Shown here: piece by piece, positions 40-41,628 of the stretch
Layout of the letters: each line of letters starts with the position of its first letter
Position numbering within the stretch: position 1 is the first letter of the stretch
Assembly: GCA_035353175.1 (NCBI GenBank)
Contig: DAOPZC010000009.1
Span: 27,304-91,303, forward strand
Direction of reading: 5' to 3'
DNA length: 64,000 bases
Source of the DNA: Kiritimatiellia bacterium
Lineage (GTDB): Bacteria; Verrucomicrobiota; Kiritimatiellia; RFP12; UBA1067
The notes under the pieces: generated by a model
Database searches by the model: none
Told to the model about the DNA's origin: nothing
Seen by the model: only the letters and a program-made list of their open reading frames with translations
Made by a program: the position numbers and the translations under genes

Positions 40-849
40 ATGAAAAGACTGGTCATGTCGGCAGTGATGTTCGCGGGGTTGACGGTTGGTTCTGTGATGG
101 CGCAGGATGCTGCGGCGCCTGCAGCGGCAGCACCTGCACCCGCCGCGGCGGCTGCCGGGCTTGAGGCGAATCCCGCTGCCGCAGGTGAGGCTGCAAAACC
201 CAAGAGCTCGGGGAAGACGGGTTTCTTCGCGGTGGTGTTCGGTTCCGGCTGGCTGGGTGTGGTGCTGTGGGCGGCGCTGTTCGGCTGCGGCGCGGCGGCC
301 ATCTATTTCATCGTGGACAGCTCGGTGATGGTCCGTCCCCAGAAGATCATGCCCCAGAGCCTGATCGACAAGGTCAAGGCCGGCATGGCCGAGGGCGACG
401 TGATGAAGGCCTTGCACGCCTGCGAGACCGAGCCGGGACCGATGGCGAACATCCTGTCCGCCGGTTTCTCCCACGTCGAAGAGGGCTTCGAAGTGATCCA
501 GGAGTCGATCGGCGCGGCCGCCGACCTGGAGACCGAGCGCATCATGCAGCGCCTCACGTGGATTTCCGTGTGCTCGAACCTGGCCCCGATGTTGGGTCTG
601 CTCGGCACGGTGCAAGGCATGATCATGTGTTTCGAAACGTTGGCGACCGGCGCCCCGGACGTCGGCTCGTTGGCGTTGGCCATTTCGCAGGCGCTGTGGA
701 CCACCGCCGGCGGCCTGTGCATCGCGATTCCCGCCATCACCTTCTACTACAGCATCCGCAACAACGCGAACCGGCTGATCCTGCGCATGCAGGCCATGAC
801 CATGGAGCTCATCAAGGACCTGCGCAACGTCGAAGTCGTGAATGACTAA
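40..849 (+). CDS. exbB: MotA/TolQ/ExbB-family proton channel (ExbB-like)
   Basis: 269 aa. N-terminal signal/TM segment with an Ala/Pro-rich region. Conserved MotA/TolQ/ExbB C-terminal core (LAPMLGLLGTVQGMI...ALWTTAGGLCIAIPA). Followed by two ExbD genes. Confidence 0.85.
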   Translation: MKRLVMSAVMFAGLTVGSVMAQDAAAPAAAAPAPAAAAAGLEANPAAAGEAAKPKSSGKTGFFAVVFGSGWLGVVLWAALFGCGAAAIYFIVDSSVMVRPQKIMPQSLIDKVKAGMAEGDVMKALHACETEPGPMANILSAGFSHVEEGFEVIQESIGAAADLETERIMQRLTWISVCSNLAPMLGLLGTVQGMIMCFETLATGAPDVGSLALAISQALWTTAGGLCIAIPAITFYYSIRNNANRLILRMQAMTMELIKDLRNVEVVND

Positions 850-1005
850 CGCCGCGTGACGCAACGGGGAGGCGCGCGTCCCGAAGGCGGCCCCCCCGGT
901 GCCGAGTCCCGTCGCCGGTGCGGCCCGCGCGCCGGCGGGTCGGTTTTGAGTCGGGCTCCCACGGGATGACACCTGCGGGGCAAACCGCAGTAAAGGTTTG
1001 AAACC

Positions 1006-1437
1006 ATGGCTAGAGGGTTATCAACACAACAGTGCGATTTGGACATGACGCCGATGATCGACGTCGTGTTCCAGCTGATCATTTTCTTTGTGGTCACGCT
1101 GAAAATGACATCGGACGTCAATCCGGACATCATTCTCGAAGACGGCAAGAACGGGGTGACGCTGACGCAGGACAATCTGCCGCCCAGCACGCTGGAGATC
1201 GAGCTGGACCGCCGGGGCCGCATCTCGATCCACAACGCGACGCTGAATGAGCGGCTCTTGGCGACGATGATCAAGAACCGGATCAACCGCCACGGCAACG
1301 AGTTTCCCGTCCTGATCCGGGCGGACCGCCGCACGCAGCACGAAAAGGTGCGCAAGGTCATGGACATCTGCACGGCGGCTGGCATCTGGAAGCTGTCGTT
1401 CGTCGCGGTTCAGGAGCACAAGGCGGCGAAAAAGTAG
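1006..1437 (+). CDS. exbD: Biopolymer transport protein ExbD/TolR (paralog 1)
   Basis: 143 aa. Hallmark N-terminal motif DMTPMIDVVFQLIIFF (ExbD/TolR TM helix), followed by a periplasmic domain. Confidence 0.8.
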   Translation: MARGLSTQQCDLDMTPMIDVVFQLIIFFVVTLKMTSDVNPDIILEDGKNGVTLTQDNLPPSTLEIELDRRGRISIHNATLNERLLATMIKNRINRHGNEFPVLIRADRRTQHEKVRKVMDICTAAGIWKLSFVAVQEHKAAKK

Positions 1438-1448
1438 GAGACGATCTT

Positions 1449-1856
1449 ATGGCTTACAAACGGAAAGAAAATAAGGGCGAGAGCCCGAAACTGGACATGA
1501 CGCCGATGATCGACGTCGTCTTCCAGCTCCTGATTTTCTTCGTGGTCACTCTGAAGCAGGAGGATATTCTCGCCAAGCTGTCGGCCGCCCGCCCCGCGCC
1601 GAACCAGGACGAGAAGGTCAAGGAGCAGCAGCAGGATCTGATCAACGTGATCGTGGCGCCGCAGGGCTTTCTTTTCAACGGCCGCCCCATGCGTCTGCCG
1701 GAGCTCGACCGCGCGATCGAGCGCCTGTCGGGCTACAGCAAGACCGCGATGGTGATCATCAAGTGTACCGCCGATTCGCCGCACGCCTTCCTTGTTCAGG
1801 TGTTGGACGTCTGCAACAAGCACGGCATGACCAACCTGTCGATCTTCAGCATGTAA
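1449..1856 (+). CDS. exbD: Biopolymer transport protein ExbD/TolR (paralog 2)
   Basis: 135 aa. Motif DMTPMIDVVFQLLIFF. Lies 12 bp after the preceding ExbD, so the cluster has two ExbD paralogs (AglQS- or exbD1/exbD2-like). Confidence 0.8.
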   Translation: MAYKRKENKGESPKLDMTPMIDVVFQLLIFFVVTLKQEDILAKLSAARPAPNQDEKVKEQQQDLINVIVAPQGFLFNGRPMRLPELDRAIERLSGYSKTAMVIIKCTADSPHAFLVQVLDVCNKHGMTNLSIFSM

Positions 1857-1866
1857 GGAATCAGAC

Positions 1867-3645
1867 ATGAGTAGCAATGTGGATATGACCGAGGTCGACT
1901 CGCATCTCGACGAGATCGCTCGGATGTACACGAACGAGACGTTGTTCCGGCGCATGAAGGTGCTGTTCTCCGGACTCAAGGCCCCCCGTCAGTCCAGAGA
2001 GTACAAGGTTGCGATGATCGAGGTGCAGCGTCTGGCGGCACCGTTCGCGGCCATTCTTCTCCCCGCGTTCGCCGTGGGCGTCTTGATGGTCATGTCGAGC
2101 GGCGCGGTGGTCCAGGACCGCATCATCGAGACGCAGGTGCTCGAGGCCGAAGAGGTGAAGGACCTCGACAAGATCGAAGAGTTCGAGAAGCCGGAAGAAC
2201 AGATGGAGGACGTCAACATCGACATCCCCATCAACAGCCCGAACGTCCAGGTGCAGTCCGATACGCCGAACAATCAGCCGATGAGCCCGCAGCCGCAGGC
2301 GTTCGACGCGGTGATGACGGTCAAGAGCCCGGTGATCCTCAAAAACATCTACGGCAGCACCCGCAACACCGGCACGCGCGGCACGCAGCTCGCCAAGTTC
2401 GGCGGCGACCGCATGACCGAAGACGCGGTGCTGCGCGCCCTGCGTTGGCTCAAGAAAAAACAGCAGACGGACGGCTCTTGGCCCGCACAGAAGGTGGCCA
2501 TGACCGGCTTGGCGGTCCTGACGTTCTTGGCGCACGGCGAGAAGCCGGGCGAGTCGGCGGAGTTCGGCGCGACGATCCAGAAGGCGCTGGAATTCCTGAT
2601 CAAGAGCCAGCGCGCCGACGGCAAGTTCAACGGCATGGACGGCAATGAATACGCCCACCCGATCGCGACGTATGCGCTCTGCGAGGCCTATGGCATGACG
2701 ATCAACCCGAACGTCAAGGTCGCGGCCGAGAAGGCGCTGGTGCCGATCATCAAGGGCCAGCATCCGACCGGCGGTTGGACCTACAAGATGGACCCCTCCG
2801 TCAACAACAGCAAAGAGCACGGCGAAGTCGGCAAGTACCGCGACGACACCTCCTACATGGGGTGGTGCGCGCAGGCGCTCAAAGCCGCCAAATTGGCTAA
2901 GCTGCACGCCGACGGCCTGGAGAAGGCGACCAAGCTCGCGGTCAAAGGCTTCAAGAAAAACGCCAGCCCGAACGGCGGCTTCGGCTACACCAGTCCGGGC
3001 ACCGGCGGCCTCACGAGCGTCGGCACCCTGTGCATGCAGCTGCTCGGCGCGTCGAATGAGGCGGAGGTGAAGAAATCGCTGGAGCTCATTGATGCTTGGA
3101 CGCCGTCCTTCTCGTCCTATGAGCCGGTCGAGGACGTGATCAAGCAGCTGAAGCCCGACGATTTGATCAAGCGCGATAAGAGCGGTAAGCCGACGCTCGA
3201 TAAAGACGGCAAGCAAGAGAAATTGACCCCTATCGCGGTGGCCAAGGATAAGCTTTCCCCGAAGGTTGATCCTGCCGAAAAGATGTTTTATTCCGCCTCG
3301 GCGCAATACTATTTCTACTATGCCACGCAGTGTAAGTTTCACCAAGGGGGCAAGCATTGGGAAAACTGGAACAAGGTCATGAAGCCGCGGTATGTCAAGG
3401 CGCAGCAGATCGAGAAGAACGCGATCAAGAACGACAAGGGCGTGGACTGTGACATCGGCTGGTGGGCGAATGCGGACACGATGAGCGACCGCCCCGTCAT
3501 GGACACTTGCCTGGCCGCGCTGCAGCTCATGGTCTATTACCGCTATCTGCCGACCACCAGCAAGGAAGCCGTGCAGGTTGAGGCGGAACTCGTGGCCACC
3601 TCCACCGACACCGAAGACATCAAGGTGGACACCGGGAATCTGTAA
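1867..3645 (+). CDS. Membrane-anchored protein with prenyltransferase/squalene-cyclase-like (alpha/alpha toroid) repeats, in the position usually held by TonB
   Basis: 592 aa. Single N-terminal TM helix (FAAILLPAFAVGVLMVMSS), then an acidic/Pro-Gln-rich linker. The C-terminal part has repeated DGSW/GGW-type motifs typical of terpene-cyclase/prenyltransferase-fold repeats: DGSWPAQKVAMTGLAVLTFLAHGEK, ADGKF, PTGGWTY, PNGGFGY. Starts 11 bp after exbD. Confidence 0.6.
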   Translation: MSSNVDMTEVDSHLDEIARMYTNETLFRRMKVLFSGLKAPRQSREYKVAMIEVQRLAAPFAAILLPAFAVGVLMVMSSGAVVQDRIIETQVLEAEEVKDLDKIEEFEKPEEQMEDVNIDIPINSPNVQVQSDTPNNQPMSPQPQAFDAVMTVKSPVILKNIYGSTRNTGTRGTQLAKFGGDRMTEDAVLRALRWLKKKQQTDGSWPAQKVAMTGLAVLTFLAHGEKPGESAEFGATIQKALEFLIKSQRADGKFNGMDGNEYAHPIATYALCEAYGMTINPNVKVAAEKALVPIIKGQHPTGGWTYKMDPSVNNSKEHGEVGKYRDDTSYMGWCAQALKAAKLAKLHADGLEKATKLAVKGFKKNASPNGGFGYTSPGTGGLTSVGTLCMQLLGASNEAEVKKSLELIDAWTPSFSSYEPVEDVIKQLKPDDLIKRDKSGKPTLDKDGKQEKLTPIAVAKDKLSPKVDPAEKMFYSASAQYYFYYATQCKFHQGGKHWENWNKVMKPRYVKAQQIEKNAIKNDKGVDCDIGWWANADTMSDRPVMDTCLAALQLMVYYRYLPTTSKEAVQVEAELVATSTDTEDIKVDTGNL

Positions 3646-3724
3646 GAAGTGCATTAGTTCGTTAGTGCATGAGTGCGGTTAACTAATAAACTAATGCACG
3701 ACTGAACGAACGCACTTCTTCATT

Positions 3725-4951
3725 ATGCCCTTTTCACTTTTTCTCGCGTTGAAATATCTCCGGCCGAAACGGTCGTTCACCTCGGTCGTGACGCTGATCT
3801 CGGTGGTCGGCGTGGTGCTGGGCGTGGCGATCATCATCATCGTGCGCGCGGTGATGACCGGCTTCGGCGACATGTGGAAAGAGAAGATCCTCGACTTCAA
3901 GCCGCACATCACCGTGTCGCCCGTGGGCGGCGGCGTCATTGAAGAGGAGGAGTCGGTCTGCAAGCGGCTGGAGATGGTGCCGGGGGTGATCGCCGCCTCG
4001 CCCGGGCTCGAAACGCGCGTGCTGGTCGAGCACCGCCGCCGCGTGGTCGCGCCGATCGTGATCGGCACCGACCCGCAGCGTGCCCGCCGCGTGATGAAGC
4101 TTGACCGCATGGCCGCGGGCGAGTTCAACATCGAGGGCGACTCGGTGGTGGTGGGCATCGATCTGGCCGCCGAGCTCGGGCTGATGGTGGGCGACGCGAT
4201 TCTGGTGTATTCGCCCATGAACCTCGTCACCAAGGACGAGGTCTATTTTCCCGAGCGTCTCACGATCACCGGCATCTTCGACTCCGGACAGCGCGACTTC
4301 GATTCCGGATTCATCGTGACCTCGATCGCCGTGGCCCGCGATCTGATGGGCATGAAGTCCGGCGTCTATTCGATCCACCTCAAGGTGGACGATCCGCAGA
4401 ACACCGCGCATTTCGGCAGAATCGTCAACGACGTCCGCATGCTGGTTCCCCGTCAGGCGGTCCGCACGTGGCAGGAGATCGACAGCCAGCTTTTCAACGC
4501 GCTCGCGGTGGAGAAAAACATGATGGTCATCCTGCTGATGTTCATCACGGTGGTGGCGATCTTCTGCGTGACCAACACGCTGATCGTGCTGACGGTCCAG
4601 AAGACGGACGAGATCGGGCTGCTCAAGGCGCTCGGTTTCTCGTCGCGGCAGGTGATGGGCGCCTTCGTGTTTCACGGCTGGATCCAGTGCCTCATCGGCA
4701 CCGCGCTGGGCATCGGCGCCGCCCTGCTGATCTTGGAAAACCTGCACGTGCTGGTGGCGTTTCTGGCGCGGCTCGGCGTAGAGGTGTTCCCCAAGAGCGT
4801 GTACGGGCTGGCGGAGATCCCGTGGCGCGTGATCCCGGGCGAGGTCGTGAGCGTCGCGGTTTCGGTGATCCTCTTCTGCACCGTGGCCAGTTTCCTGCCC
4901 GCCTGGCGCGCATCGCGCATGGATCCGGTGACGGCCCTGCGCAAGGAGTAG
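3725..4951 (+). CDS. lolF: Lipoprotein-release ABC transporter permease, FtsX-like family (LolC/E/F-type)
   Basis: 408 aa. N-terminal LKYLRPKR motif and TM1 typical of LolC/E. Large periplasmic domain. C-terminal FtsX-like 3-TM bundle ending ...AWRASRMDPVTALRKE. Confidence 0.8.
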   Translation: MPFSLFLALKYLRPKRSFTSVVTLISVVGVVLGVAIIIIVRAVMTGFGDMWKEKILDFKPHITVSPVGGGVIEEEESVCKRLEMVPGVIAASPGLETRVLVEHRRRVVAPIVIGTDPQRARRVMKLDRMAAGEFNIEGDSVVVGIDLAAELGLMVGDAILVYSPMNLVTKDEVYFPERLTITGIFDSGQRDFDSGFIVTSIAVARDLMGMKSGVYSIHLKVDDPQNTAHFGRIVNDVRMLVPRQAVRTWQEIDSQLFNALAVEKNMMVILLMFITVVAIFCVTNTLIVLTVQKTDEIGLLKALGFSSRQVMGAFVFHGWIQCLIGTALGIGAALLILENLHVLVAFLARLGVEVFPKSVYGLAEIPWRVIPGEVVSVAVSVILFCTVASFLPAWRASRMDPVTALRKE

Positions 4952-4988
4952 GGGCGCGCCCGCATTCCGCCCCGACGGAAAGAGCAAG

Positions 4989-5666
4989 ATGTTAGAAGCA
5001 ACCAACCTGCATAAGACGTACATCCTGCCGCACAAGCGGGTCGACGTGCTGAAAGGCGCGTCGATCAGCGTGGGCAAAGGCGAGCGCGTGGCGATCGTGG
5101 GGCGCAGCGGCGCAGGCAAGAGCACGCTCCTGCACGTGCTGGGCGGCCTGGACCGGCCCGACGCCGGCGAGGTCAGCGTGGACGGCAAGCCGCTTTACGC
5201 GGTCTCGCAGCGGGTGCGCACGGCCGTGCGTGCGGCCAAGATCGGCTTCGTGTTCCAGTCCTACCACCTCCTGTCGGAAATGGACGTCACCGAGAACGTG
5301 ATGCTGCCCGCCATGACCGGCGTGCTGAACATCACGCGGGCGCAGATGCGGCAGCGCGCTTTGACGCTGCTGGAGCAGGTGGGCCTGGCCGACCGCGCCA
5401 CCCACATGCCGCTGGAGCTCTCCGGCGGTGAGCAGCAGCGCGTGGCCCTGGCGCGCGCGCTCATTCACGAGCCCGCGCTGATCCTCGCCGACGAGCCGAC
5501 CGGCAACCTCGACCGCATGACCGGCGCGCAGATCATGGAGCTGCTCTTCGGCCTCTCCTGCACGCGCGATCTGGCGTTGGTGATGGTGACCCATTCGCCC
5601 GAGACCGCCGCGCTGTGCGACCGCGTCATGGAGCTGCATGAGGGCTTGCTCGTTCCGCGGCCGTGA
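4989..5666 (+). CDS. lolD: Lipoprotein-release ABC transporter ATP-binding protein LolD
   Basis: 225 aa. Walker A GRSGAGKST, ABC signature LSGGEQQRVALARAL, Walker B ILADEPTGNLD. Begins with the typical LolD start (L.A.NL.K.Y). Confidence 0.85.
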   Translation: MLEATNLHKTYILPHKRVDVLKGASISVGKGERVAIVGRSGAGKSTLLHVLGGLDRPDAGEVSVDGKPLYAVSQRVRTAVRAAKIGFVFQSYHLLSEMDVTENVMLPAMTGVLNITRAQMRQRALTLLEQVGLADRATHMPLELSGGEQQRVALARALIHEPALILADEPTGNLDRMTGAQIMELLFGLSCTRDLALVMVTHSPETAALCDRVMELHEGLLVPRP

Positions 5667-5685: not shown

Positions 5686-6486
5686 TCACAAATCCCGCAG
5701 CCTGAAAATCAGGGTGAGACGGGCGAATGACGCCACCGGACGCCCGTCGCGGGCACCGGGCTTGAAGCGCGCCTGTTCCACGGCGCGCACCGCGGCGCGG
5801 TCGAGGTCCGGAAATCCGCTGGAGGACACCAGCGTGACGCCGGTTGTCCGCCCGTCCTCGCCCACCGACGCATCGAGAATGACCGTCCCCTCTTCGCCGC
5901 GCCGCCGCGCGCCGATGGGATAGGAGGGCCGGATCGGGCGGTCGAGCGAAGGATGGGCGTCGATGTGCCCCGCGGAGCCGGCCGCGCCGGCGTTCTCGCG
6001 TTGGCTGGCTCCGGGCACGGCCGGCGCGGGCTCGATGACGGCGGCGGCGGGTGCCGCTGCGGTTGGCGCGGGGGCCGTCTGGGCGGCCGGTGCGGGTTTG
6101 GGCTTCTCGGCCGGCGGAACGGGCTTGGCCACGGGGACGGGTGCCGGCACCGGCTTGGGCTCCGGAACGGCCTCCGGCTCGGGGATCGCGTCGGTGAAAT
6201 CGGGCTTTTCCTGGAGTTGCGGTTGCGCCGCCATTTCGGGAACGGGCTCGGGAAGCGGAAGCGGCGAAATCTCGGCGGCCGGCGCTTGCGCGGCCTTCGG
6301 CCCCGCGCCCGGCACGTCGGGCGCGATCTCGGTCAGCGTCAACTCCACCGCGGTCACTTCCAGCTCGGGGGCTGCCGTGGCCGGCGCGTCCCTGTGATGC
6401 ACGGCATAAAAACCCAGCAGCAGCAGCCCCGTGAGGTGCAGGGCGGCGGACAGGGTATAGCTCACGATATGGTCGGCAGAGAACAT
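5686..6486 (-). CDS. tonB: TonB energy transducer
   Basis: The six-frame ORF runs to 6987, but that extension overlaps the upstream exbD. The start used here is Met-168 of the ORF (MFSADHIVSY..., ATG at 6484-6486). Has an N-terminal TM helix, a long Pro-rich spacer (PEPVPE...PKPVPAPVPVAKPVPPAEKPKPAPA) and a TonB C-terminal domain (GEEGTVILDASVGEDGRTTGVTLVSSSGFPDLDRAAVRAVEQARFKP). Confidence 0.75.
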   Translation of the reverse strand: MFSADHIVSYTLSAALHLTGLLLLGFYAVHHRDAPATAAPELEVTAVELTLTEIAPDVPGAGPKAAQAPAAEISPLPLPEPVPEMAAQPQLQEKPDFTDAIPEPEAVPEPKPVPAPVPVAKPVPPAEKPKPAPAAQTAPAPTAAAPAAAVIEPAPAVPGASQRENAGAAGSAGHIDAHPSLDRPIRPSYPIGARRRGEEGTVILDASVGEDGRTTGVTLVSSSGFPDLDRAAVRAVEQARFKPGARDGRPVASFARLTLIFRLRDL

Positions 6487-6575
6487 GGGGTAAAGCGCGG
6501 TCAGTTCATTGGGCGTCCGTTTTTCATGCGTGGGGCGCGGGCGGAAAGTCTGTGCGGCGGTGTGGGAGCCTTGGG

Positions 6576-6980
6576 CTACTTCGCCTCGCCGCTGACCTGG
6601 AACGCGACGCGTTCCACGCCGCCGTTCTTGAGCTTGCCCAGCAGCTCGATGCCGGTGCCGAGCGAGGCCGCCTTGTCGGCGCTGATGAGCACGGGCGTGG
6701 CGCTTTCGCGCCAGAGCTTGACGGTGGCGATCACCAGCTCGTCGAGCGGCATGGCTTGCTTGTTCAGGAGCAGGCGGTTGTCGGCGGCCAATGTGATGAT
6801 CGTCTGCTCCCCTTTCTGCTGCACCCCTTTGGCGGCGGGCAGGTCCACTTTCAGGCCGCGGTGGACCGACATGGAGAAGATCGAGTAGACGAAGACGACC
6901 AGGATCAGAAACATGACGTCCATGAGGGAGATCATTTCCATCCGGGCCTTGCGGTCTTCGTATCCTGAGCTCAGGCGCAT
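6576..6980 (-). CDS. exbD: Biopolymer transport protein ExbD/TolR
   Basis: 134 aa. N-terminal TM helix (ISLMDVMFLILVVFV). Periplasmic ExbD domain. Confidence 0.85.
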   Translation of the reverse strand: MRLSSGYEDRKARMEMISLMDVMFLILVVFVYSIFSMSVHRGLKVDLPAAKGVQQKGEQTIITLAADNRLLLNKQAMPLDELVIATVKLWRESATPVLISADKAASLGTGIELLGKLKNGGVERVAFQVSGEAK

Positions 6981-6983
6981 GGT

Positions 6984-7691
6984 TCACTCTCCCGGTTGGC
7001 CGGCGCGCGCGTTCAGGCTGACGCCGGTGTTGTAGGCGAGCTCGAAGTGGTGGATGGCCTGTTCAAGCTCCGTGGTGCGGCGCTTGAGCTGCGAGACCAG
7101 GAAGTTGAAGGGAAAGAGGCAGGCGATGGCCACGATCAGGCCGGCGGCGGTGGTGATCAGCGCCTCGGCGATGCCCGCCGTGGCGCCGGCCGGATTTTCC
7201 ATGCCCGCCGCGTTGAGCATGTTGAAGGTGTTGATGATGCCGGTGACCGTGCCGAGAATGCCGAGCATGGGGGCGACGGTGATCGAGGTGTCGAGGACCG
7301 AGAGCCCTCGGCGCAGGTGGTCCAGCTCCAGCTGCGACGCGGCCTCCAGCGTCTCTTGGAAGCCCGCCGTGCGGTTCTCGAGAGCCTGCGCGAAAACGCG
7401 GCAGACCGGCGAATCGGCCTGTTTTGCGGCGGCGAGGGCTTCGTCGAATTTGCCCTCGCGGGTGAGCCCGATGAGCGCCTTCTGTTTGTGGCGGAAATAG
7501 AAATTGGCGGTGTTGTACTTCCAGAAGGCGAAGAGGCGCTCGAACGTCACGGCGAGCCCCATGAACGAGCAGACCAGGATCGGCCACATGACCGGCCCGC
7601 CGCGGTCGAAGAGCGCGAAGGCCGCGTCGAAAAGGCCCTGCGGCGCCGCGGGGGCGGCCTGGGCGAGAAAAGAAGAGCAAAACATCATCAA
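6984..7691 (-). CDS. exbB: MotA/TolQ/ExbB-family proton channel
   Basis: 235 aa. Conserved core APMLGILGTVTGIINTF...ALITTAAGLIVAI. First gene of an exbB-exbD-tonB operon on the minus strand. Confidence 0.85.
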   Translation of the reverse strand: MMMFCSSFLAQAAPAAPQGLFDAAFALFDRGGPVMWPILVCSFMGLAVTFERLFAFWKYNTANFYFRHKQKALIGLTREGKFDEALAAAKQADSPVCRVFAQALENRTAGFQETLEAASQLELDHLRRGLSVLDTSITVAPMLGILGTVTGIINTFNMLNAAGMENPAGATAGIAEALITTAAGLIVAIACLFPFNFLVSQLKRRTTELEQAIHHFELAYNTGVSLNARAGQPGE

Positions 7692-7759: not shown

Positions 7760-8740
7760 TCACATGACCTTCATTTTGGGCAGGTCCTGGATGTCCACGT
7801 AGCCGACCAGACGGCCTTCCGCGTCGACCACCGGCAGGTCATCGATCTTGTATTTCTCGAAGATGCGCAGCACATCGACGGCGAAGGCCTCGTCGCACAC
7901 CGACACGGGCTTATGGGTCATGACGGCGTGGACGGGGCTGCGGAGGATGTCTTTGCCTTCGGAAAGCTGGCGGCGCAGGTCGCCGTCCGTGAAGATGCCG
8001 GCCAGGCGTCCGTCGGGATGGGCAACCAGCGCGGCGCCGCTCTTTGCGGTCGTCATGGCCATGATGGCGTCCATGATGGTGGCCGAGAGCGGCAGCGTGG
8101 CCAGCCGCTCGCCGGTGCGCATGATGTCGCGGACGCGCAGCACGAGGGCCCGGCCGATCGCGCCGGCGGGGTGCAGGCGGGCGTAGCTCTCCTTGTTGAA
8201 GTGACGGGCCTCGATCAGCACCATGGCGAGCGCGTCGCCGACGGCCATGGTGGCGGTGGTGCTGGTGGTGGGCGCCATGCCGAAGGGGCACGCCTCCTTG
8301 CCGATGCGGACGCAGAGCACCACGTCGCTCAGGCGGGCGAGCGTGCTGTCCGGATTGCCGACCATGCCGATGATGCGGATGCCGAGACGGCGCACGGCGG
8401 GGATGAGTTTGATGACCTCGTCGGATTCGCCGGAGAAACTGAGCGCCAGCAGCACGTCGTTCTCGGCGATCATGCCGAGGTCGCCGTGCATGGCCTGGAT
8501 CGGGTTCATGACCACGCTGGTCGAGCCGGTGCTGGCGAGGGTGGCGGAAAGCTTTTCGGCGATGTGCAGGTTTTTGCCGACGCCGGTCACGACGATCTTG
8601 CCGCCGTTGTCGAGGGTTTCGAGAATCAGGCGCACCGTGGCGAGAAAATCTTCGCCCAGCGCGGCCTGCGCGGTGCGGAGGCCCTCGATTTCGGTGTCAA
8701 GAACCTGCCATGCGCGAGAAAGGATCGCTGCGTTATCCAT
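7760..8740 (-). CDS. kdsD: Arabinose-5-phosphate isomerase (KpsF/GutQ/KdsD family; SIS plus tandem CBS domains)
   Basis: SIS domain motifs (GKIVVTGVGKNLHIAEKLSATL...VLLALSFSGESDE). C-terminal CBS pair. Start chosen at MDNAAILS (ATG at 8740) rather than the ORF start at 8824. Confidence 0.8.
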   Translation of the reverse strand: MDNAAILSRAWQVLDTEIEGLRTAQAALGEDFLATVRLILETLDNGGKIVVTGVGKNLHIAEKLSATLASTGSTSVVMNPIQAMHGDLGMIAENDVLLALSFSGESDEVIKLIPAVRRLGIRIIGMVGNPDSTLARLSDVVLCVRIGKEACPFGMAPTTSTTATMAVGDALAMVLIEARHFNKESYARLHPAGAIGRALVLRVRDIMRTGERLATLPLSATIMDAIMAMTTAKSGAALVAHPDGRLAGIFTDGDLRRQLSEGKDILRSPVHAVMTHKPVSVCDEAFAVDVLRIFEKYKIDDLPVVDAEGRLVGYVDIQDLPKMKVM

Positions 8741-8945
8741 AAAAAACGTTCGGTTTTGAGGTTGATTCAGGCGGCGCCGGACCGGTGCCGCCGGCTTTGA
8801 ATGTCGGCTTTCAGTGTAGCGCAAAGGGCGGCGGGCGCAAAAGGTCTTTTTTCATCTTGTGCAGACCGCGGGGTGGGAATAAAATACAACACCGGTAGGG
8901 GATAAACACGGCACAACGGTCACGGTTAAAAGAAAGGAACGCGCC

Positions 8946-9354: not shown

Positions 9355-10460
9355 TTAAGGGGAGGCGTCGCGCCATACCTCGTCGTACACCGCGAGGGTT
9401 TTCGTCACCATCTGGTCGAGCGAGAACCGGGCGAGAATGTCTTCCCGCAGGCCGGAGAACGCGGCGGTTGACGCCCGCACCAGCCGGTCGGCGAGCTGCG
9501 CCTCGTCGCCCGGCTCGACCAGCCACCCGTTGAAGCCCTCGCGGACGATGTCCAGGGCGCCTCCGAAGCGCGTTGCGATCACCGGGCACCCCATCGCCAG
9601 CGCCTCGGCCATCGAGCGCCCGAACGACTCGGGCTTGGCGCGGTTGCCGGAGACGAGCACGTGGCCGCAGGCGTAAATCTCGGCGACTTTGCTCTGGCTG
9701 CCCGCGAAGGCGACGTGGCCGCCCAAGCCCAGTTCAGCCACCAGCTTCCGCAGCGCCTGCTCGTGGCCGGCGCGCGTCGCCTCCGCGCCGCCCACGATCA
9801 CGGTCTTGATCCGCGGGTTTGTCGCGCGCGCCAGGGCCGTGGCCCGGATGAGCGCGTCGTAGCCCTTGAGCGGCGTGATGCGTCCGACGCCCAGCACCAC
9901 GAAGCGCCCCTCCAGCCCATGGCGGCTCCGGAAGTCCGCCATGAACGCCGCGTCGAGCCGCGCCGGATCGAAGAGCTGCGGGTCGATGCCGCGCGGCACG
10001 AGCCGGATCTTTTCCGGGGGCGTCCCGTAGTGCTCGCGGATGTAGTCCACGACGGAGGTGCTGGGGCAGATCACCCGCTGGCCCGCGGTCATGATCCGGC
10101 TGTAGGCGCTCACGCTGTTGAAGCCGTGGACCGTGGAGACGAAGGGCAGCCGCAGGGGGCGGTTGGCCAGCACGAAGAGCCAGCCCGGCACGCGGCTGCG
10201 GTAGTGCACCAGGTCCGGCCTCAGGGCTTTGAGCGCGCGGCGCAGGGCCAGCACCCGCTGCGGGACCGTGAGCGGATTCTTCGATTTCACGTCCAGCGTC
10301 AGGTGCCGTCCGCCGTCGCGCTCGACCGTCCCGGCCAAGTGTCCGCCGCTGGAGATGACGGTGCTGACGAGGCCGCGCCTGACGAATTCGCGGTTGAGCT
10401 CGACGGTGCCCCGCTCGACGCCGCCCTCCTCGAGCGCCGGAAGGATCTGGAGAATGTGCA
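9355..10460 (-). CDS. Glycosyltransferase family 4 (GT-B, GT1/GT4 superfamily)
   Basis: Start taken at MHILQILPALEEGGVE, the typical GT4 N-terminus. C-terminal E-x7-E region (GSQSKVAEIY...ESFGRSMAEALAMGCPVIATRFGG). The start position is uncertain within 2 nt. Confidence 0.8.
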
Positions 10461-10751
10461 TGCCGGGTATGATACAGGGTTTGGGGGGCGGGGGGCAAGG
10501 TGTCGCGTGGCTCAAGGATGGGAACGGGCGTGATTCAACTGTGTTGCATCCACACCCGAAGGAGAAATATGGGCGGAGAAGTGAGGAGTTCCAACACCTC
10601 GGAGACGAAGAGCGCGTACGATACGCATTTCACCGTCGCAATACTTGACTTCCCGCATGAGAAATCACAGAATGAAACGAATTTTTGTCGCATCAAGCGG
10701 GTAACGATGTGATATGTCCAAAGACGGGGGTCGTGAAAGGAAGTCCGAGTC

Positions 10752-13700
10752 ATGAGCGTATGGCGATGGGGAACGGTTCTTTTGATTTCTGCGGTATTTT
10801 CGGCGCAGGCGATTGAGTCGAACGGCGTGCTGCTTGTCGAAGTGAAGGCGTCGTCGCTTTCCGGTCTGGGAAACAATGCGGCGGTGGCGGCGTGGGCCAA
10901 TACGGGAACGCTGGGTGGGAATTTCGTGCCGGCGGTCAGCGGGCAGGGCGCGGTCTATCAGGACAGCGTCGGGGGCGCGCCGGCCGTGACGTTCGCGGCG
11001 TCGGCGAACTCGATCATGACCAACACCGTGCCGCCGCCTTCGTCTATTCTGAGCAACAACATCTGGAGTGCGGAGATCTGGGTGCTCAACCCGAGCCTGC
11101 AAGGCGCGGAAGACCAGTTCGCGTGGACCGACCGCGAGAACTGGACCGGGTCTGCGGACGGCACGTGCATGGAGATCCGCTACTGCGCCGACACCGCGAA
11201 CGCGGTGGAGCATCATAACGGCACCTGCAATATCCCCTGGACCAACTCGCTTCCTACGGCCGGCGTGTGGCACCACATCGCCGTCACGCGCTCGGCGGAC
11301 GGCTCCGAGCGCCTCTATGCCGACGGCGTGCTGTGCACGACCAAGACGCCGGCGGTGAGCAACCTGCGCGGCGGCGCGCCGTTCGCGATGGGCGGCGTGT
11401 GGAACCGGGCCACGAATGATTGGCAGATGCTCTTCAGCGGCTCGCTGGCACAGGTGCGCGTGCACAGCGGCACCCTGAGCGGGGCGCAGGTCCTCAGCAA
11501 CTTCCTGGAAGAGCGCGAGACCTACCATGCGATCTGGAACGGCGCGCCGGGAACGGAACAGGCGTGGGAGAACAGCGCCAACTGGCTCTCGAACAACGCG
11601 GCCGAAAGCGGCTCGACGGCATGGATCACGAACGGGGGCTTCGCCGTCCTCTCCGGCGACCTGTCGCTGAACCATCTCTATCCGACGGCGGGTGGACTTG
11701 CCGTGAGGAACGGCGCCAAGCTGACGCTCGAAGGTGCCGACAACGTCTACATGGCAAGCACGAACAATTTCGCCCTGAGCGTCGAGGACGGCCTTTTCGC
11801 CATAAACGGCAACGGGACAACGAATCTTTACATGGGCCAGTTCGGCGGCGACGCGGCCGTCACGGTCGGGGTTTCCGGGGCCTCGGCGACACTTGAGGTG
11901 CCCCGCGACACGGTTCTGGCGAACAGCAGCGGCAGCGCGGGCGCGATGACGGTCGGCCCTGGCGGCGGCGTGTACAACTCCAACGGCTGGTTCTATGTGG
12001 CGAACAACGTCGGCGCGCAGGGAGCGTTGACGGTCAACGGCGGCACGCTCGGGTTCCGCACGGCGGACAAAGCCTTCGTCGTGAACGCGAACGGCGCGCG
12101 CGGCGAGGTGACGGTCAACAGCGGCGCAATCAGCGCGACCGGTGATTTCAAATGGTCCAACGGCACCGCGAACAACACATCTTACGGCAAGGCTCAGCTC
12201 AACGGCGGCACGGTCGAAGGCAAGCGGTTCTTCGCCGACAGCACGGCGGGCACGAACCTGCTCTATCTGAACGGCGGCACGGTCAAGGCCCGGGTCTCGG
12301 CCAGCGATTTCCTGTACAACCTTACGGGCGCATATGTCCAGAACGGCGGCGCGGTTTTCGAAATTCCGGCGGGCGCGACGGTGACGGCCGCGCAGGCGCT
12401 GCTGGCGGACGCCGGCAGCACGGGCGGCCTGACGAAACTCGGCGCGGGCCGCATCACCTTCGCGGGAACCAATACGTTTACGGGGGCGCTCGACGTGCAA
12501 GGCGGCGACCTCTTCTTCAGCCACGTCAGCGGACTCGCCGCCGGCTTTGGCGGCGCGGTGTCGGTGGCCAACGGGGGGTCCATCGGCTACAATACGGTCG
12601 GCGGCGCGTCGCTGCTGAACGGCTTGTTGACGGCCGGCTCCTCGGGCTACCTGACGCTCTGTCCCAGCAACGCGGCGGACAGCGTGACGTTCGCCGCGCT
12701 GCCCAACATGAAGCTCGCCTTCCAGGGGCTCGCCCGCTACACCGGCACGTTCACGCCCTATCAGAACCAGTACGTCTTCGAAGTCGAAGGGACGACGGTG
12801 ACCAACGGCGCGACGTTGGCGGACGGCGCGACGAACGGCCACCTGAGCGTGACCGGCGTTTCGGGCGGCGGAATGGTGCTGACCGGCAACAACACGTATA
12901 GCGGCGGCACGGAGGTCGACGCGGCGACGGTGACGCTCGGCCACGCCAACGCGCTCGGCGTGCAGGCCCAGCCCGGTTCGCCGGACATCATCCTGCGCAA
13001 CGGCGCGTCGCTGCGCTTTGTGGCGGACATGGATATCAACGCGCTGGTGACCGGCCGCCTGGACACCGCCTCCAACGGTATCCTGCTGGTGGGCGCGGCC
13101 AACGCGGCCAAGAGCATCGATCTCAGCCGCCACCCCGGGATCGTGGTGGGCTCCGCCGACGCGAGCCTGGACTACACCGGTACGCTCACGCTTTCGCCTG
13201 CGAGCGACGCCTATCGCCTCGGCGGCGGCAGCCCGACGTACAACGGCACGCCGAACCGCGGCTTCTCGGTCAACAACCTCACGGACGGCACCGAGGCCCG
13301 CAAGGTGGTGATCGGAACGCCTGGCCTTGTGGAGCTCAAGGCCGGCAACTCCTACTCCGGCGGAACCGTCGTCACGAACCGCGGCGTCCTCTTCATCAAG
13401 GAAGACGGCCTGGGCGCGGTCCCGGCCACGCCCGAGGCGGGGGCCGATAACCTCTATGTGAGCAACGGCGTGGTCCGCGCCGGCAACGCGAACTTCACGC
13501 TGCCTCCTAACCGCGGCATCCACGTCGCGGCAGGAACCGGCGGCATGGAGCTCCACCCGTGGGGCGGTTACTCGATGACGGTGGCGGGCAATCTCTCCGG
13601 CTCCGGCCCGATCACGGTGACGGACACCGGCTGGGTCACCTTCGGCGGCGCGGCCAACACGTACAGCGGCCTGCTGGACATCAGCGGCGGCCGCAACATC

Positions 13701-16700
13701 CGCATCGGCGACGGCGCGAACTTCAGCTGGTCGCCGTCCGGCACCTTCACGCTCAACGGCATGCTGGCGCTCAAGAGCGACGGCTCGGTGGCGTTCAGCA
13801 ACGCGCTCGCCGGCGCCGGCTCGCTGCGCAAGGAGGGCGCGGGCGATCTGACGCTTGCCGGAGCGAAAACGTACGGCGGCGTCACCTATGTCGACGCCGG
13901 CTCGCTCAAGGTCGCGGCCACCAACGTGCTGCCGCGCGGCGCGGGCAAAGGCGTGGTGCAGATCGCGGCGGGCGCGGGGCTCGAGGCCAACGGCGCCGAT
14001 CTGCTGGTCGGCGGCCTGCAGGGCGCGGGCGCGGTGGCGAACGGGCCCGCCACGCCGGCGACGCTCTACGTCGGTGAGACCAACGTCAACGCGACGTTCG
14101 GCGGCGCGGTCGATCCTTCGCTCACACTGGTCAAGATCGGCGCGGGCAAACAGGCGCTCACCAACGCGGTCGGCGCGGCGGCCGATGTCGAGGTCCAGGC
14201 GGGCACGCTGGAGCTCTTCGGCGCGGCGGCGGTCACCGGCACCGTGACGCTTGCCGGCGGCACGCTCGGCGTGACCTACGGCGGCAACGGCCTGACGGGC
14301 AGGTACTATCAGCTGGCTGTGCCGCCGGTCACGAGCGACTTCGTCTCGTATGCGGCGGTCACCAACTTCCTGAACGGCAAGACGCCGTCGGTGGTCAGCA
14401 ACAGCCTCGCTTTCGGCGCGACCTTCAATCCCGGCGTCAGCTCGGCCGGCAACCAGACCGGCGCGCGCTTCCCGGCGCCGTTCAACGCCTATAACACGAG
14501 CAACTTCGCGGTGCTCTGGTCGGGCCTCTTCTTTGCGCCCGTGGCGGGCGACTACGGCTTCGCGACCGCCAGCGACGACGGCAGCATGGTTTTCATCGAC
14601 GGCCAGACGGCGCTCAACAACAACGCCATGCAGAGCTACACGGCGGCGGAAAGCAACACGGTCGGCACGGTGACGCTCGCGGCGGGCCTGCACCAGATCG
14701 ACATCGCCTACTACGAGGCGGGCGGCGACCAGGGCGTGACCGTGTGGGTCAAACAGCCGGGCGCGGCCTCCGTGGCGGAGCTGCCGCAGTCGCTGCTCTT
14801 CACCGGGCTCGACACGGGCGCCGCGCGGATCGGCGCGCTGGCCGGCAGCAAGGGGCGCGTCGCGTTCGCGGCGGCCGGCCTGCCCGAGCTGCGAGTCACC
14901 GGCGAGGGCGACATGGCCTACGGGGGCGCGATCCTCGGATCGAACGCGCTCAGCCGCCTGGTCAAGGAGGGCAGCGGCACGCTGGCGCTCTCCTCGCCGC
15001 AGAGCGATTTCTACGGGGTGCTGGATATCCGGGCGGGCGTGCTGGCGCTGACTAACGGGCCTGCCACGCTCGGCACGCTGTCCATGGCGGAAGGCGTCCG
15101 CGCGAACGTGTCGGGCCTCGCCGGGCTGAACATGTGGTTCTACAACCGCTCGGCGTCCGACGCCAACTACAGCGAGTTTCAATCCCTGGCCGCATGGGAG
15201 TCCTATGTCAGCGAGTTCTTCTCGGGCGGCCCGGGCTATGTCACCAACTCGCTGGTGCTCGGTGCCAATCTGGACACCGGCGCGTCGGGCGAGTACTGGC
15301 CCGCGCCCTACAAGCAGTCGGGCGGCTCCGAGGCCGACACCTATGACGCCTACCTCTTCGGCCGCATCTATCTGGACCGTTCGGGCACCTATACCTTCGC
15401 GACGGCCAGCGACGACGGCAGCATGCTCTACATCGACCGGACGCTGGTCGTGAACAACGGCTATGACCAGGGCGTGACGACGCGTTCCGGCACGATCGCG
15501 CTGACCGCCGGTTTCCACACCATCGACATCCTCTACCGCGAGAACACGGGCGGCAACGCGCTGCGCGTGTCCATCGGCTACCCGGGCCAGGCGCTCACGC
15601 TGATGCCGCAGTCGATCCTCTTCGGCGGCGCCGCGCTGCGCGGGCTCGCGGGCGAAGCGGGCAGCGTCGTGAGTCTGCTCCCCGACGCCTTGCTGGTGCT
15701 GGACCAGAACGCGGACACGCGACATGCGGGCGCGATTGCGGGCGACGCCTCGACGAGCGTTCAGAAGAACGGCGCCGGCACGCTGACGTTGACCGACGAG
15801 AACGACGGTTTCGCGGGCTTGTACCGGATCGTCACCGGCGCGCTTCGCGTCGGTGACGGCGGCGCGACCGGCGCGCTCGGGCCGGCCGCTTCGGTGCGGA
15901 TCGAGGCGGCGGGCACGCTGGTCTTCGACCGCGCGGGAACGGTGACGGTGAGCGGCCCGCTGGCCGGCACCGGCCGGATCGTGCTGGACGGACCGGGCGA
16001 GGTCTATGTGACGTCGACCAACGCCTTCGCCGGCACCGTGGTCATCAACGACGGGCGGCTGACGTTCGCGCCCGGCGCGACGCTGGGCCCGGCGGCCGTG
16101 GTGACCAACGCGGCCACGCTCGAGGTCGAGACCGCGGGGACGCGGCTGCAGAGCGGCGTCATGGCGGGCCTCGCGGGCAGCGGCGACCTCGCGGTGAGCG
16201 GGACCGGCACGCTGGCGCTGAACAACAGCAACGCCGACTTCACGGGCACGACGCACGTGTTCACCGGCGTGACGGTGCGCGTGTCGCGGCCTGCCAACCT
16301 GGGCGGCCTCGGCGACGTGGCGCTCGACGGCGGCACGCTGGCCGTGCTGCCCGACGTCGAGCAGGGCACGAACGTGATGGTCTCCGCGCTGGACACGAAC
16401 ACCTGGAAGCGGAACGGCGCGGCGGTGTGGACCAATCGCTACGACAGCCAGTGGCTGCAGCTCACGCCGAACACCGGCAGCCAGGCCGGCAGCGCCTTCT
16501 GCACCAACCGGGTCGGATGCAGCGCGCCTTGGTACGCGGTCTTCCGCTATGAGGTCGGTGCCCATTCGGCCGGGGCCGCGGACGGTGTTTCCTTCGTCCT
16601 GCAGAACGACACGGACGGCGCGTCCGCGCTCGGCGCCAACGGCGGGCAGTTGGGGGTCGACACCATCGCGCCGTCGATCGGCGTGTTCATCAACATCTAT

Positions 16701-31062: not shown

Positions 31063-34000
31063 ATGAAAACGAGCTGCATGAAGAACGTATTGAAAAAGCT
31101 GGCTTTCCCCTTGGTGGCCTGCGGGTTCCTTTGGACAGGGGCTTCGGCGTGGGCGCAGTTGGGCGACATCGTGAGCATCTTCTCCGATCAGCCGAACTTC
31201 ACCTATTCGGCCTCCGGAGACCAGGTCGAGATCAAGATCAAGCTGGACGGCGGCATCCTCAAAAATGGCATTTTTTCTAAACGTGCGGTGACCGGCACCA
31301 CCCCGTCGGAGTATTTCCCCCCCGAGCTCCGGCTGGTCGTGAACGGCAAGGCGGCGTGGGCGCCTTTGTCCCGGCTCAATGCGTACCAGGTGGCCGCGGG
31401 CAATCCGCACTACCGCACGGAAGCGGTCTTCACGTATACGATCAAGCCGGGCGACATGGCCACCCCCCTGCGCATTTTCGGTTCGGCCGGCAGTTCGGGC
31501 AGCGGCGCCGCCTTCCAGTTCTATATGAACAACTGGGAGATCTACAACACCGTCACCACCAGCAACGCGGTGTGGCGTCTGAATATGGCCAACACCGGTC
31601 TGGAGCCGGGGGTGACCGACTATTACGACGTGGATTTCTCCGGCGCGAACGTGAAGCTGCGCACGCTGGAGTTCGATGAGGTCCGGTCGCCCATCACCGT
31701 CGCGGCGACGGAGTCGACCTCGTGGCGCGTGTCTTCCGTGAACCCTGTGGCCCCCTCCAATGTGGTCGACTGCGTGGTCTGGACGCCCAGCAATGTCGTG
31801 CAGATCGGCACCGTCGCGGGCCAGTCGGCGCTGCCCGTCAATATCCCCGGCGGCGCCACGTATGTGGACTTCCCCGTCAAGGGCCTCGTGGAAGGCGAGA
31901 CCGAAATCTACCTGCAGCGCGCGCAGGACTACGCCAATAACGCGACCGTCGGCGTCACCAACTACATCAAGCGCAAGATCACGGTGACGACCGCCCCCGC
32001 GCCGACCGTCTCCATCCGGATGACTTCGTCCGGCACGGATTCGGCGACGCTGAGCGAGTCGGCCGCCGCCAACACCGGCGCGCTGATCGTCGACATCTCG
32101 CAGGCGTTCTCGAACGACGTCTATGTGAGCCTGAGCACGCTGCCGTCGGGGCAGAGCAACCTGACGTTCGCCGCGGCGCTGCCGGTGGTGACGATCCCGG
32201 CGGGCTCGACCTCTTCCTCCGAGGTCCGCTTCAGCGTGCCGGACGGCACGGTCCTGAGCGAAAGCGCGGGAATCGAGATCGTTCCCTCCGTGACCAACAC
32301 GGCGGCGCAGTCCTTCTATTCGCGCATGAAGTCCGGCTATGTCTATGTCGCGAACGTCACCCCGGAAATCGTGAGCCCGCAGACGAACGAAACGTTCACG
32401 GTGTCGCAGAACACGGCGTATCCCTTCACCTGGTCGGTCCGCGACGTGAATGCGGACAAGCTGTCGGGCATGACCGTGACATGGAAGTTCGGGACGGATC
32501 CCGCCACGAACGTGACCGGCGCCACCGGCACCATCCTGCACACCTTCCCCATTACGCCGGCGGCAAAAGTGTATAAAGTCGAGATCACGGCGACGGACAA
32601 GGACGGCGACCAGTCGGAGACGACCGCGATCTACGTGACGGCGACGCCGCCCACGCCGAGCCCGAGCGTGCGCGTCATTCCTTCCGCCTCCTATTTTGAA
32701 ACCACGACCAACAATACGGGATCTCTGATGGTGGTGTTGTCCGAAGCCTATTCGGAGAACGTGTATGTCAAGCTCTCGACCGATCCCGCAGTGCAGAACA
32801 ACCTCATCCTTTCGACAACGAACGCGATCCGCATTCTGAAGGGCGAGCTGACGAACGCGATCCCGGTCACGTTCAGCGTCCCCGACGGAACGGTCCTGAG
32901 CGAGCAGTACGGGATCGAGATTGTCCCGACGGTGACGAACGCCAGCGCGGCGGCCTATTATACCGATCTCGTGTCGGCCCTCGTGACGGTCAAGAACAAC
33001 CGCCCGGTCGTGGGCAGCCCGGTGGCCGGCAGCTCGGTCGGCCCGATTCCCGCGACGGTGCCCTACACCTTCAACTACACGGTGAAGGATGTCACGGCGG
33101 ATCTCTCTACGATGATCGTGAACTGGCGCTTCACCGAAGGTGGTCCGATCTATACGGTGACCGGCGCGGTCGGCTCGGTTGCCTACACCTATATGTCGCA
33201 GGGCACCAATACGGTGTGGATGCAGGCCGTGGATAAGGACGGCGGGGTCTCCGACGAGGTGCAGTTCACGGTGTATGTCGGCCAGGCTCCGGGCGTCGAG
33301 ATCATCACGCCGGCCGGCGAACTCTCCGAAACGGCCAATGCGGGCATCCCCGATCAGATTTATGTGCGGTTGACGACGCCGTACACCTATGCGACGACGG
33401 TGACGCTGAACGTCACGCCCGCGAACAGCACGGGGAACGGCACCTTGACGCTGAGCGCCTACACGGTCGTGATTCCGGCGGGCCAGATCGAGGCGAAGAT
33501 CAACATCAGCAATGTGAAGGACGGCACCGATATCTCGCGCAACACCGGCTTCATGATAACCCCCGTGGTCGGCGCGCAGAACAACGCCGACGCGTTCTTC
33601 TCAAACAACATGCCCGGCTATGTGTATATCCGCAACGAAAAGCCGGAGATCAACACCCCTGAAGATACGGACACGACCGCCGAGACGGTGGTGTACACGG
33701 TCGCGCAGGGCACCGCTTGGACGTACTACTGGGACATCACCGATGTGGCGCTGGATTCGACCTCGACGGTCGGCACCGGCATGAAGGTGACGTGGTACTT
33801 CGGCGACGGCGAAGTCTCGCCCGCGCTGTGGGGCCGGTCGGGCTCCGTGTCGCATACCTACACGGCGATCGGCGACCTGATCGTGCGCATGGTGGCGGAG
33901 GACAAAGACGGCGGACGCGACCAGGCCTCCTTCAAGATCCGCGTGGCGCCGGCGAAAGCCGTCAACGTGACGCCGGTCGGACCGGTCCGTGCGGGAGCCT

Positions 34001-41466: not shown

Positions 41467-41628
41467 GAAACTAGATCAAGGTTGCGGTGAAGGACATGAA
41501 GATGGCGGACCGTTAAACGGGGTCTCTCTTAATGTCCTTCACCCGGACCTCATGCGGTCAAGGGCGATGGGGTCATGGAGGCGGAACCTGCTGGAGCGAA
41601 CCGTGAACAGGAGTTGAAGGTGCTGAGA

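Follow-up and report, generated by a model that had tools for sequence, protein, structure and literature searches.

To our knowledge, 5:2 motors of the ExbB/ExbD type power only a few envelope processes, namely TonB uptake, the Tol-Pal system, gliding and flagella. Kiritimatiellota degrade polysaccharides and have envelopes that are little understood, and the first genes of a 64-kb stretch of Kiritimatiellia DNA (the window, meaning the whole stretch that was analysed) raise the question of what such a motor does in this group. Six genes at positions 40-5666 encode, in order, an ExbB-like protein, two ExbD-like proteins, a membrane-anchored protein with an alpha/alpha toroid head (the toroid protein), and the permease and ATPase of a LolF-LolD lipoprotein-release transporter. 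The original prediction treated this run as a putative operon in which a motor driven by the proton motive force (PMF) is coupled to lipoprotein release. The answer that we consider reasonably probable is that the run represents two units, probably co-transcribed here, that do not make up one machine: a motor-toroid transducer module, followed by LolDF.

Open reading frame (ORF) calls, together with Pfam and NCBIfam profile searches of the window proteins, recovered all six genes on the + strand, with domains that agree with the labels first given to them. The run comprises exbB (40-849; ExbB/TolQ-like stator subunit, 269 aa; PF01618, 5.8e-26), exbDa (1006-1437; ExbD/TolR-like subunit a, 143 aa; PF02472, 1.5e-20), exbDb (1449-1856; ExbD/TolR-like subunit b, 135 aa; PF02472, 1.2e-20), the toroid gene (1867-3645; membrane-anchored (alpha/alpha)6 protein of 592 aa; SQHop_cyclase_C, PF13243, 5.6e-09), lolF (3725-4951; LolC/E family permease, 408 aa; FtsX and MacB_PCD, with TIGR02212 lolCE at 5.2e-83) and lolD (4989-5666; ABC ATPase, 225 aa; ABC_tran, with TIGR02211 LolD at 6.8e-73). 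The intergenic gaps are 156, 11, 10, 79 and 37 nt; the last four had been given as 12, 11, 80 and 38 bp, each one too large, and the 156-nt gap between exbB and exbDa had been left unmentioned. Clustering on one strand is unremarkable alone, and it is the recurrence of the gene order across genomes that exceeds chance. The run consists of two same-direction units, 40-3645 (motor-toroid) and 3725-5666 (lolFD).

A motor-toroid module in Kiritimatiellia and their relatives

The comparison with relatives is based on a toroid-seeded scan with one genome per species, which returned 79 loci in metagenome-assembled genomes (MAGs) labelled Kiritimatiellia, Lentisphaerae or 'Verrucomicrobia'. Loci, numbered below with the prefix L, were annotated by tblastn with the window proteins, and about 90 related loci were compared overall. 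The order ExbB-ExbDa-ExbDb-toroid is present in 46 loci, with ExbB conserved upstream of ExbDa and the toroid gene directly after exbDb, and a further ~27-30 loci hold stand-alone toroid paralogues that have kept the anchor and the linker. Two genes precede exbB, the first encoding a secreted TPR/helical-repeat protein (~1,018 aa) and the second a secreted TPR protein (~266 aa), in all 42 of the 42 motor-linked loci with upstream sequence, and both are absent from every stand-alone toroid locus annotated in this way. The pair lies at 4035-7953 in L001 and at 1539-5424 in L086, and is cut off by the start of the window. The conserved unit is made up of six genes (large TPR, small TPR, ExbB, ExbDa, ExbDb and toroid), of which the window holds the distal four. 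The large TPR protein scores just over the YbgF/CpoB cut-off of TIGR02795 (91.5 vs 90.1 bits), the same YbgF model is weakly matched by 18 of 20 small TPR proteins, and the N-terminal 110 aa of the small protein match NCBIfam Mul1B (NF052542) in 6 of 20 homologues, at no more than 21.5 bits vs a cut-off of 75. The two TPR proteins would probably serve as a scaffold.

Among the motor proteins, ExbB has a signal-peptide-like N-terminus with an Ala/Pro-rich extension; TolQ is its best match in both NCBIfam and PDB, and the pore threonines in GTVxG and TTAGG align. TolR is likewise the best NCBIfam and PDB match of ExbDa, which was aligned to E. coli ExbD, and the membrane Asp of the TPxIDV motif is kept in ExbDa and ExbDb (TPMIDV, aligned to TPFIDV of E. 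coli or Serratia ExbD). The membrane segments of ExbDa and ExbDb are identical at 21 of 22 residues and ~90% identical in DNA, while the remainder of both genes has diverged, a pattern that fits an ExbDa/ExbDb heterodimer sharing one pore. ExbB would form a pentameric proton channel around this heterodimer, with both ExbD subunits bearing the Asp. The near-identity of the two exbD segments that encode the membrane helix (1039-1104 and 1491-1556) extends to synonymous sites, which suggests gene conversion or a constraint at the nucleotide level. Upstream of them, the 156-nt exbB-exbDa spacer (850-1005, + strand) is GC-rich and structured, with a terminator-like hairpin at 912-942; the corresponding spacer is ~80-170 nt long and has strong hairpins in most sampled relatives of the window clade, and measures 9-26 nt in distant clades. 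Where structured, it may tune the ratio of ExbB to ExbD.

A canonical ExbB (6984-7691), ExbD (6576-6980) and TonB (5686-6486, 266 aa) are also encoded in the window, all on the - strand and converging on lolD, such that the stop codons of lolD and tonB are 19 nt apart, an adjacency that is absent from the relatives examined. This TonB has an SxxxH helix (SAALHL), a Pro-rich linker and a TonB_C domain. Since a separate canonical ExbB-ExbD-TonB system exists at 5686-7691 (- strand), the + strand motor is an additional system, distinct from the one that energises TonB in this cell.

The toroid protein and known force transducers

The notable part of the module is the motor's toroid partner, which makes the module a toroid-headed variant of the known TPR-tolQ-tolR-tolR-transducer grammar. 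In an AlphaFold2 model built from 45 homologues, residues 1-79 (1867-2103, + strand, as are all positions of this gene) contain cytoplasmic helices (7-37) and the sole membrane helix (44-79), residues 80-177 (2104-2397) form a disordered, acidic, Pro-rich linker with a predicted local distance difference test score (pLDDT) below 50, and residues 178-557 (2398-3537) form a periplasmic (alpha/alpha)6 head with pLDDT of ~90 in its core (~180-555) and three QW-like motifs (Qx2-5GxW/F). The remaining residues, 558-592, together with the stop codon (3538-3645), are a disordered tail that ends in DIxVDxGNL, conserved in the alignment. In all 72 of the 72 toroid homologues examined the linker has a length of 93-108 aa, with ~10% Pro and ~19% Asp plus Glu, and the juxtamembrane motif R29..G36..P40..EYK.A.iE.QRLsAP is common to motor-linked and stand-alone paralogues. 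Taken together, the fixed linker length, the conserved anchor, the place right after exbDb and the existence of motor-less paralogues that remain anchored favor a transducer over a free enzyme, and we put the toroid protein forward as a candidate for a new force transducer of the periplasm, with a TonB/TolA-like layout.

The family is large, with 530 representatives at 50% identity (E<=1e-30) and 5,144 at E<=1e-10; in a cluster look-up, the only taxon name obtained for distant representatives was Lentisphaerota. One clade of stand-alone toroid genes (L002, L020, L022, L023, L028-L031, L033, L034, L061 and L076) is followed at +1/+2 by genes for an extracytoplasmic function (ECF) sigma factor and a zf-HC2 anti-sigma factor, and these sets resemble the gene sets of TonB-linked trans-envelope signalling. 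Tandem toroid duplicates were observed in L046 (8394-13738), L049, L035 and L054 (6331-11725); in L046 three toroid genes come after the motor, and in L054 the second toroid gene stands after lolD.

A quite different role is implied by the database name of the homologues, 'terpene cyclase/mutase family protein', and by the PF13243 match. Foldseek searches with the head found squalene-hopene cyclase (1.4e-05) and also the thioester-containing domain (TED) of complement C3/C5, glycoside hydrolase (GH) families GH76, GH8 and GH105, and epimerases, and the homologue alignment has invariant polar and aromatic residues that include E273, D327, W333, Q336 and Y484. Along with the weak Mul1B-family similarity of the small TPR protein, these observations could point to a periplasmic enzyme or binding protein, glycan-active or of the cyclase/prenyltransferase kind, that is not linked to the motor and is co-expressed with it for substrate uptake. 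We hold this to be very improbable. The solved structural neighbours of the head are generic toroids only, with 9-14% identity to any solved enzyme; terpene-cyclase-type NCBIfam models score 26-37 bits vs cut-offs of 323-851; DxDD, DDxxD and thioester (CGEQ) motifs are all missing from the window toroid, and DxDD is not conserved among the aligned homologues. With no catalytic motif and such generic neighbours, 'terpene cyclase/mutase' is to be read as a label for the fold and not for the function. Class II terpene cyclases and prenyltransferases share with the toroid the QW repeats on an alpha/alpha barrel, but the AlphaFold2 model has a single domain of ~375 aa, unlike the two-domain beta-gamma architecture of the cyclases. 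A role as a terpene cyclase was rejected on three counts, i.e., the lack of a catalytic motif, the presence of one domain only and the predicted periplasmic location. Moreover, a disordered tether of conserved length and a conserved anchor are hard to reconcile with a simple enzyme, as is the position of the toroid gene in 46 loci.

The transducer reading gains from comparison with known systems. Like TonB-ExbB-ExbD, the module has an ExbB-family channel, an ExbD with a membrane Asp, and a partner in which a Pro-rich linker of ~100 aa joins an N-in membrane helix to a globular head in the periplasm; as in TonB systems, a genome can have several partner paralogues of which only one is beside the motor, and those without a motor have retained both anchor and linker. 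The differences are a toroid head in place of TonB_C (neither TonB_C nor TIGR01352 matched the 592-aa protein in the Pfam and NCBIfam searches), the absence of an SxxxH/SHLS motif, the presence of two ExbD genes, and a conserved cytoplasmic N-terminal region of ~40 aa. No TonB-dependent outer-membrane transporter was seen in the module or flanks of the loci read, a statement that covers these loci and not whole genomes, for which no search was made. With Tol-Pal systems that include CpoB/YbgF, the module shares a channel and an ExbDa that match TolQ and TolR best, as well as the YbgF-like TPR similarity, which is perhaps generic; it differs in that neither the module nor its flanks contain a gene for TolA domain III, TolB (PD40) or a Pal/OmpA-like protein.

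The names of homologous proteins assign the source organism to the Kiritimatiellia and so to the Planctomycetes-Verrucomicrobia-Chlamydiae (PVC) group. A further likeness is found in PVC bacteria, for which TPR-tolQ-2x tolR-vWA transducers were proposed in 2025, the vWA proteins having an SHLS/His motor-binding motif (PMC12204202). Those systems belong to the same phylum and likewise have a TPR gene, one tolQ and two different tolR genes upstream of the transducer, but here a toroid head replaces vWA and the SHLS/His motif is absent from the toroid. The toroid-headed version is not mentioned in PMC12204202, and a search of the available literature found no toroid, prenyltransferase-like or squalene-cyclase-like protein coupled to ExbBD.

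How the force might be used is suggested by a further PVC locus, the genetically studied possible relative MUL1 of Akkermansia muciniphila. Its detailed gene list is reportedly that of Davey et al. 2023. MUL1 (mul1A = Amuc_0544, with Amuc_0546 as a 'biopolymer transporter') is needed for mucin uptake (10.1101/2025.02.20.639370, PMC11480725, PMC12418764), and it reportedly also combines TPR with ExbB/ExbD-type genes, in the service of complex-glycan uptake. The sole computed link to the module is the sub-threshold Mul1B match of the small TPR protein. The module differs from MUL1 in that the Mul1B matches are far under the cut-off, in distant homologues too, and that the motor and toroid proteins gave no Mul1-type match. 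In the mechanism that we propose, the 5:2 motor would drive the toroid protein through its membrane anchor, the linker of ~100 residues and fixed length would span the periplasm, and a partner in or close to the outer membrane would thereby meet the (alpha/alpha)6 head and the conserved C-terminal peptide. This would make the toroid protein a force transducer like TonB or TolA with a different head, and the force may be spent on energised uptake, as suggested by Akkermansia MUL1, or on a Tol-like maintenance of the outer membrane. If the toroid is indeed a transducer, the repertoire of PMF-driven periplasmic machines is wider, and there is a handle on how Kiritimatiellota energise outer-membrane processes.

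The lolF-lolD pair and the junction before it

The second unit is an ordinary one. LolDF and LolCDE are lipoprotein-release transporters (PMC11784454, PMC13575116; PDB 9w37, 7arh), and the arrangement lolF-lolD is the commonest, typical one in Gracilicutes, where both genes are reported always to be in one operon (PMC11784454). The permease of the window aligns end to end with TIGR02212 (279.3 bits, under the curated cut-off of 362.45) and has a MacB_PCD and FtsX architecture; its best solved relative is LolF (9w37, 1.1e-40, end to end), followed by LolE and then LolC. For LolD the best model is TIGR02211, at 244.8 bits vs a cut-off of 307.75, so that both proteins fall under the NCBIfam cut-offs, in which they differ from known LolDF. 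Homologues of lolF carry the annotation 'lipoprotein-releasing system permease' or 'ABC transporter permease', and lolD adjoins lolF in most relatives. What the pair shares with known LolDF is the use of one LolC/E-family permease with LolD encoded behind it, the end-to-end alignment with the solved LolF and the gene order; the position behind a motor module, and not stand-alone, is a difference. It is the commonness of the lolF-lolD arrangement, together with LolF being the best solved relative, that marks the unit as ordinary.

The original prediction was right to single out the physical linkage of motor and lolFD, which is not confined to the window. The first scan gave 41 motor-linked loci that extend far enough downstream to be assessed, 21 of which have lolF as the very next gene after the toroid, and with L086 added the toroid-lolF junction is present in 22 related loci. 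The linkage is far from general, as the other 20 of the 41 modules precede unrelated genes, i.e., CinA, MutL, Schlafen-like, a pyridoxal phosphate (PLP) enzyme, GH2 and transglutaminase-like. The toroid-lolF spacer is at most 7 nt in 9 of the 22 linked loci, one of them with a 4-nt overlap, and 25-315 nt in the other 13. A junction that recurs in 22 loci, nine of them with such short spacers, makes co-transcription plausible in this lineage, and to that extent the predicted operon stands. In a neighbour-joining tree all assessable members of the window clade are lol-linked, two other clades are mixed and the basal clades are unlinked. LolDF may have been placed behind the module by a Kiritimatiellia sub-lineage, and from gene order it appears that lolFD stands behind the module in part of the class and is there probably operonic.

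A LolF-seeded sample gave seven contexts at 65-76% identity. L086 (LolF 76%) has the full module and lolF, then an inserted 312-aa gene (10245-11183, an ORF with no Pfam match), and then lolD; L017 and L018 have a ~1-kb gap between lolF and lolD, located between ~12930 and 13900, similar in size and position to the L086 insert. In L083, L087 and L088 a simple lolF-lolD pair is set among unrelated genes, and L082 and L084 have lolF without an adjacent lolD, an exception to the one-operon rule of PMC11784454. A conserved 230-aa gene that precedes lolF in L085 and L088, both from unlinked genomes, was considered as a LolA candidate and rejected, as it had no LolA match and encodes a cytoplasmic hypothetical protein.

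In the window the two units are separated by a long, AT-rich hairpin (3644-3720, + strand), identified by inverted-repeat and folding analysis, that extends from the toroid stop codon to 4 nt before the lolF ATG. The hairpin, already noted as a palindrome at these positions, has arms of 31 nt that are 81% complementary; it exceeds in length all other inverted repeats of the 64-kb window and has a folding energy of -33.7 kcal/mol (z = -4.1). The GC content is 41%, vs roughly 57-72% in the surrounding DNA, and there is no T-tail. The arms are arrays of 8-nt units, CATTAGTG / CGTTAGTG. Arrays of the same units flank the toroid-lolF spacer in L014 (9125-9235) and L024 (11636-11737), whose toroids are 57-69% identical to that of the window; degenerate CATTAGTG/CGTTAGTG arrays are present at the junction in L011 and L001, and L021 and L032 have equally long junction stems with a different repeat unit. 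In 1.33 Mb of sequence searched, the motif clusters only at the toroid-lolF junction. A metagenome scan for the junction 15-mer CGTTAGTGCATKAGT returned at least 120 chance matches, none near toroid or lolF among the matches listed, and Rfam had no match at the hairpin, its sole match being a chance isrG inside exbB.

The strength of this hairpin would suit mere adjacency of the two units, in which the palindrome terminates the motor-toroid transcript and lolFD is transcribed from its own promoter. Further points in favor are the 13 linked spacers of 25-315 nt, which are mostly highly structured, and the canonical terminators (GC stem and T-run) in the spacers of L013 and L015. The hairpin of the window, AT-rich and without a T-tail, is unlike the canonical GC-stem and T-run terminator found elsewhere in the window, at 52783-52823. 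A scan found no sigma-70-like promoter at the toroid-lolF junction, and there is no room for one after the structure, which leaves 4 nt in the window and ~10 nt before the lolF ATG in L013 and L015. As no promoter fits between structure and start codon, lolF transcripts must traverse the structure. Considering also the nine relatives with spacers of at most 7 nt, we judge independent transcription rather unlikely, though it deserves more weight than the other alternatives. The hairpin more likely modulates read-through, attenuation, processing or stability than it effects full termination, and a double-stranded stem of this length is a plausible RNase III substrate. The lolFD linkage with its structured junction is a testable case of envelope-gene co-regulation, in which lolFD itself is ordinary.

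Possible coupling between the two units, and the surrounding genes

The reading of two units, the first of them a transducer module, has to be weighed against several points. The membrane helix of the toroid has no His within residues 44-80, where TonB, TolA and the vWA transducers have SHLS/His; no outer-membrane partner of the toroid was identified in the loci examined; and the fold similarity of the modelled head is so generic that an enzymatic or glycan-binding role is possible for it. The census rests on the best 80 loci and on MAG binning, both of which restrict it. A functional association of the module with lolFD is also possible, given that the linkage is kept over large divergence, at 51-53% LolF identity (L062, L074 and L079), that spacers can be near zero, that in L085 (2574-10923) lolF-lolD lies beside a divergent ExbB-ExbD-TPR(775 aa)-VWA(676 aa) cluster, and that the canonical TonB system abuts lolD in the window.

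These last observations bear on a stronger claim, namely that PMF motor, toroid and LolDF work together in one trafficking route, for instance by escorting lipoproteins or surface proteins from the LolF exit site to the outer membrane or by energising their passage. The 22 junctions, the lolFD neighbourhoods of both the L085 motor and the window TonB system, the second toroid paralogue after lolD in L054 and the conserved cis element at the junction can all be cited for it, and so can the toroid fold, since lipid-binding cavities are a feature of such folds in the terpene cyclase/prenyltransferase class. Against such functional coupling, half of the modules have no lol nearby; most LolF orthologues lie elsewhere (in 6 of the 7 sampled contigs those at 65-73% identity lie outside the module context), even within a module-bearing genome, as in MAG CAYQJG01, where lolF (L084) and an unlinked motor-toroid locus (L051) are on different contigs; the TPR gene pair tracks the motor and not lol; and many toroid paralogues are stand-alone or beside ECF sigma/anti-sigma genes. 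LolDF elsewhere works with soluble LolA and without a PMF motor (PMC11784454). We find a shared route improbable. With module and lolFD apart about as often as together, a mechanistic coupling of motor-toroid and LolDF is possible but unsupported, with a small chance of being right, and the integrated motor-Lol machine implied by the original prediction falls away from the operon that it also proposed.

A bolder version would make the anchored toroids a third large class of PMF-driven transducers, next to TonB/TolA and the vWA type. The motor-linked copy would be co-expressed with LolDF in this lineage because it gives mechanical help in carrying lipoproteins, or surface proteins with a lipid anchor, across the periplasm; there is only a slim chance of this, which would amount to a PMF-assisted branch of lipoprotein trafficking in a PVC envelope. 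The favored account remains that of two units, probably co-transcribed in the window, in which the motor would serve its toroid partner.

Beyond the run and the TonB operon, the window holds further envelope genes. The TonB operon is adjoined by a gene for a KpsF/KdsD arabinose-5-phosphate isomerase (7760-8824, - strand) of the synthesis of precursors for 3-deoxy-D-manno-octulosonic acid (Kdo) and lipopolysaccharide (LPS). The proposed relevance of the module to the giant adhesin-like genes nearby was rejected, since relatives show no synteny between these genes and the module. They encode three giant secreted proteins: one of 2,253 aa (10752-17513) with PA14, legume-lectin and PATR repeats, one of 3,467 aa (31063-41466) with Laminin_G_3, PKD and TSP3, and one of 1,534 aa (41575-46179) with an M4 thermolysin-like peptidase, MAM and He_PIG. 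Between the genes for the 3,467-aa and 1,534-aa proteins lies another hairpin (41479-41550), with arms of 24 nt.

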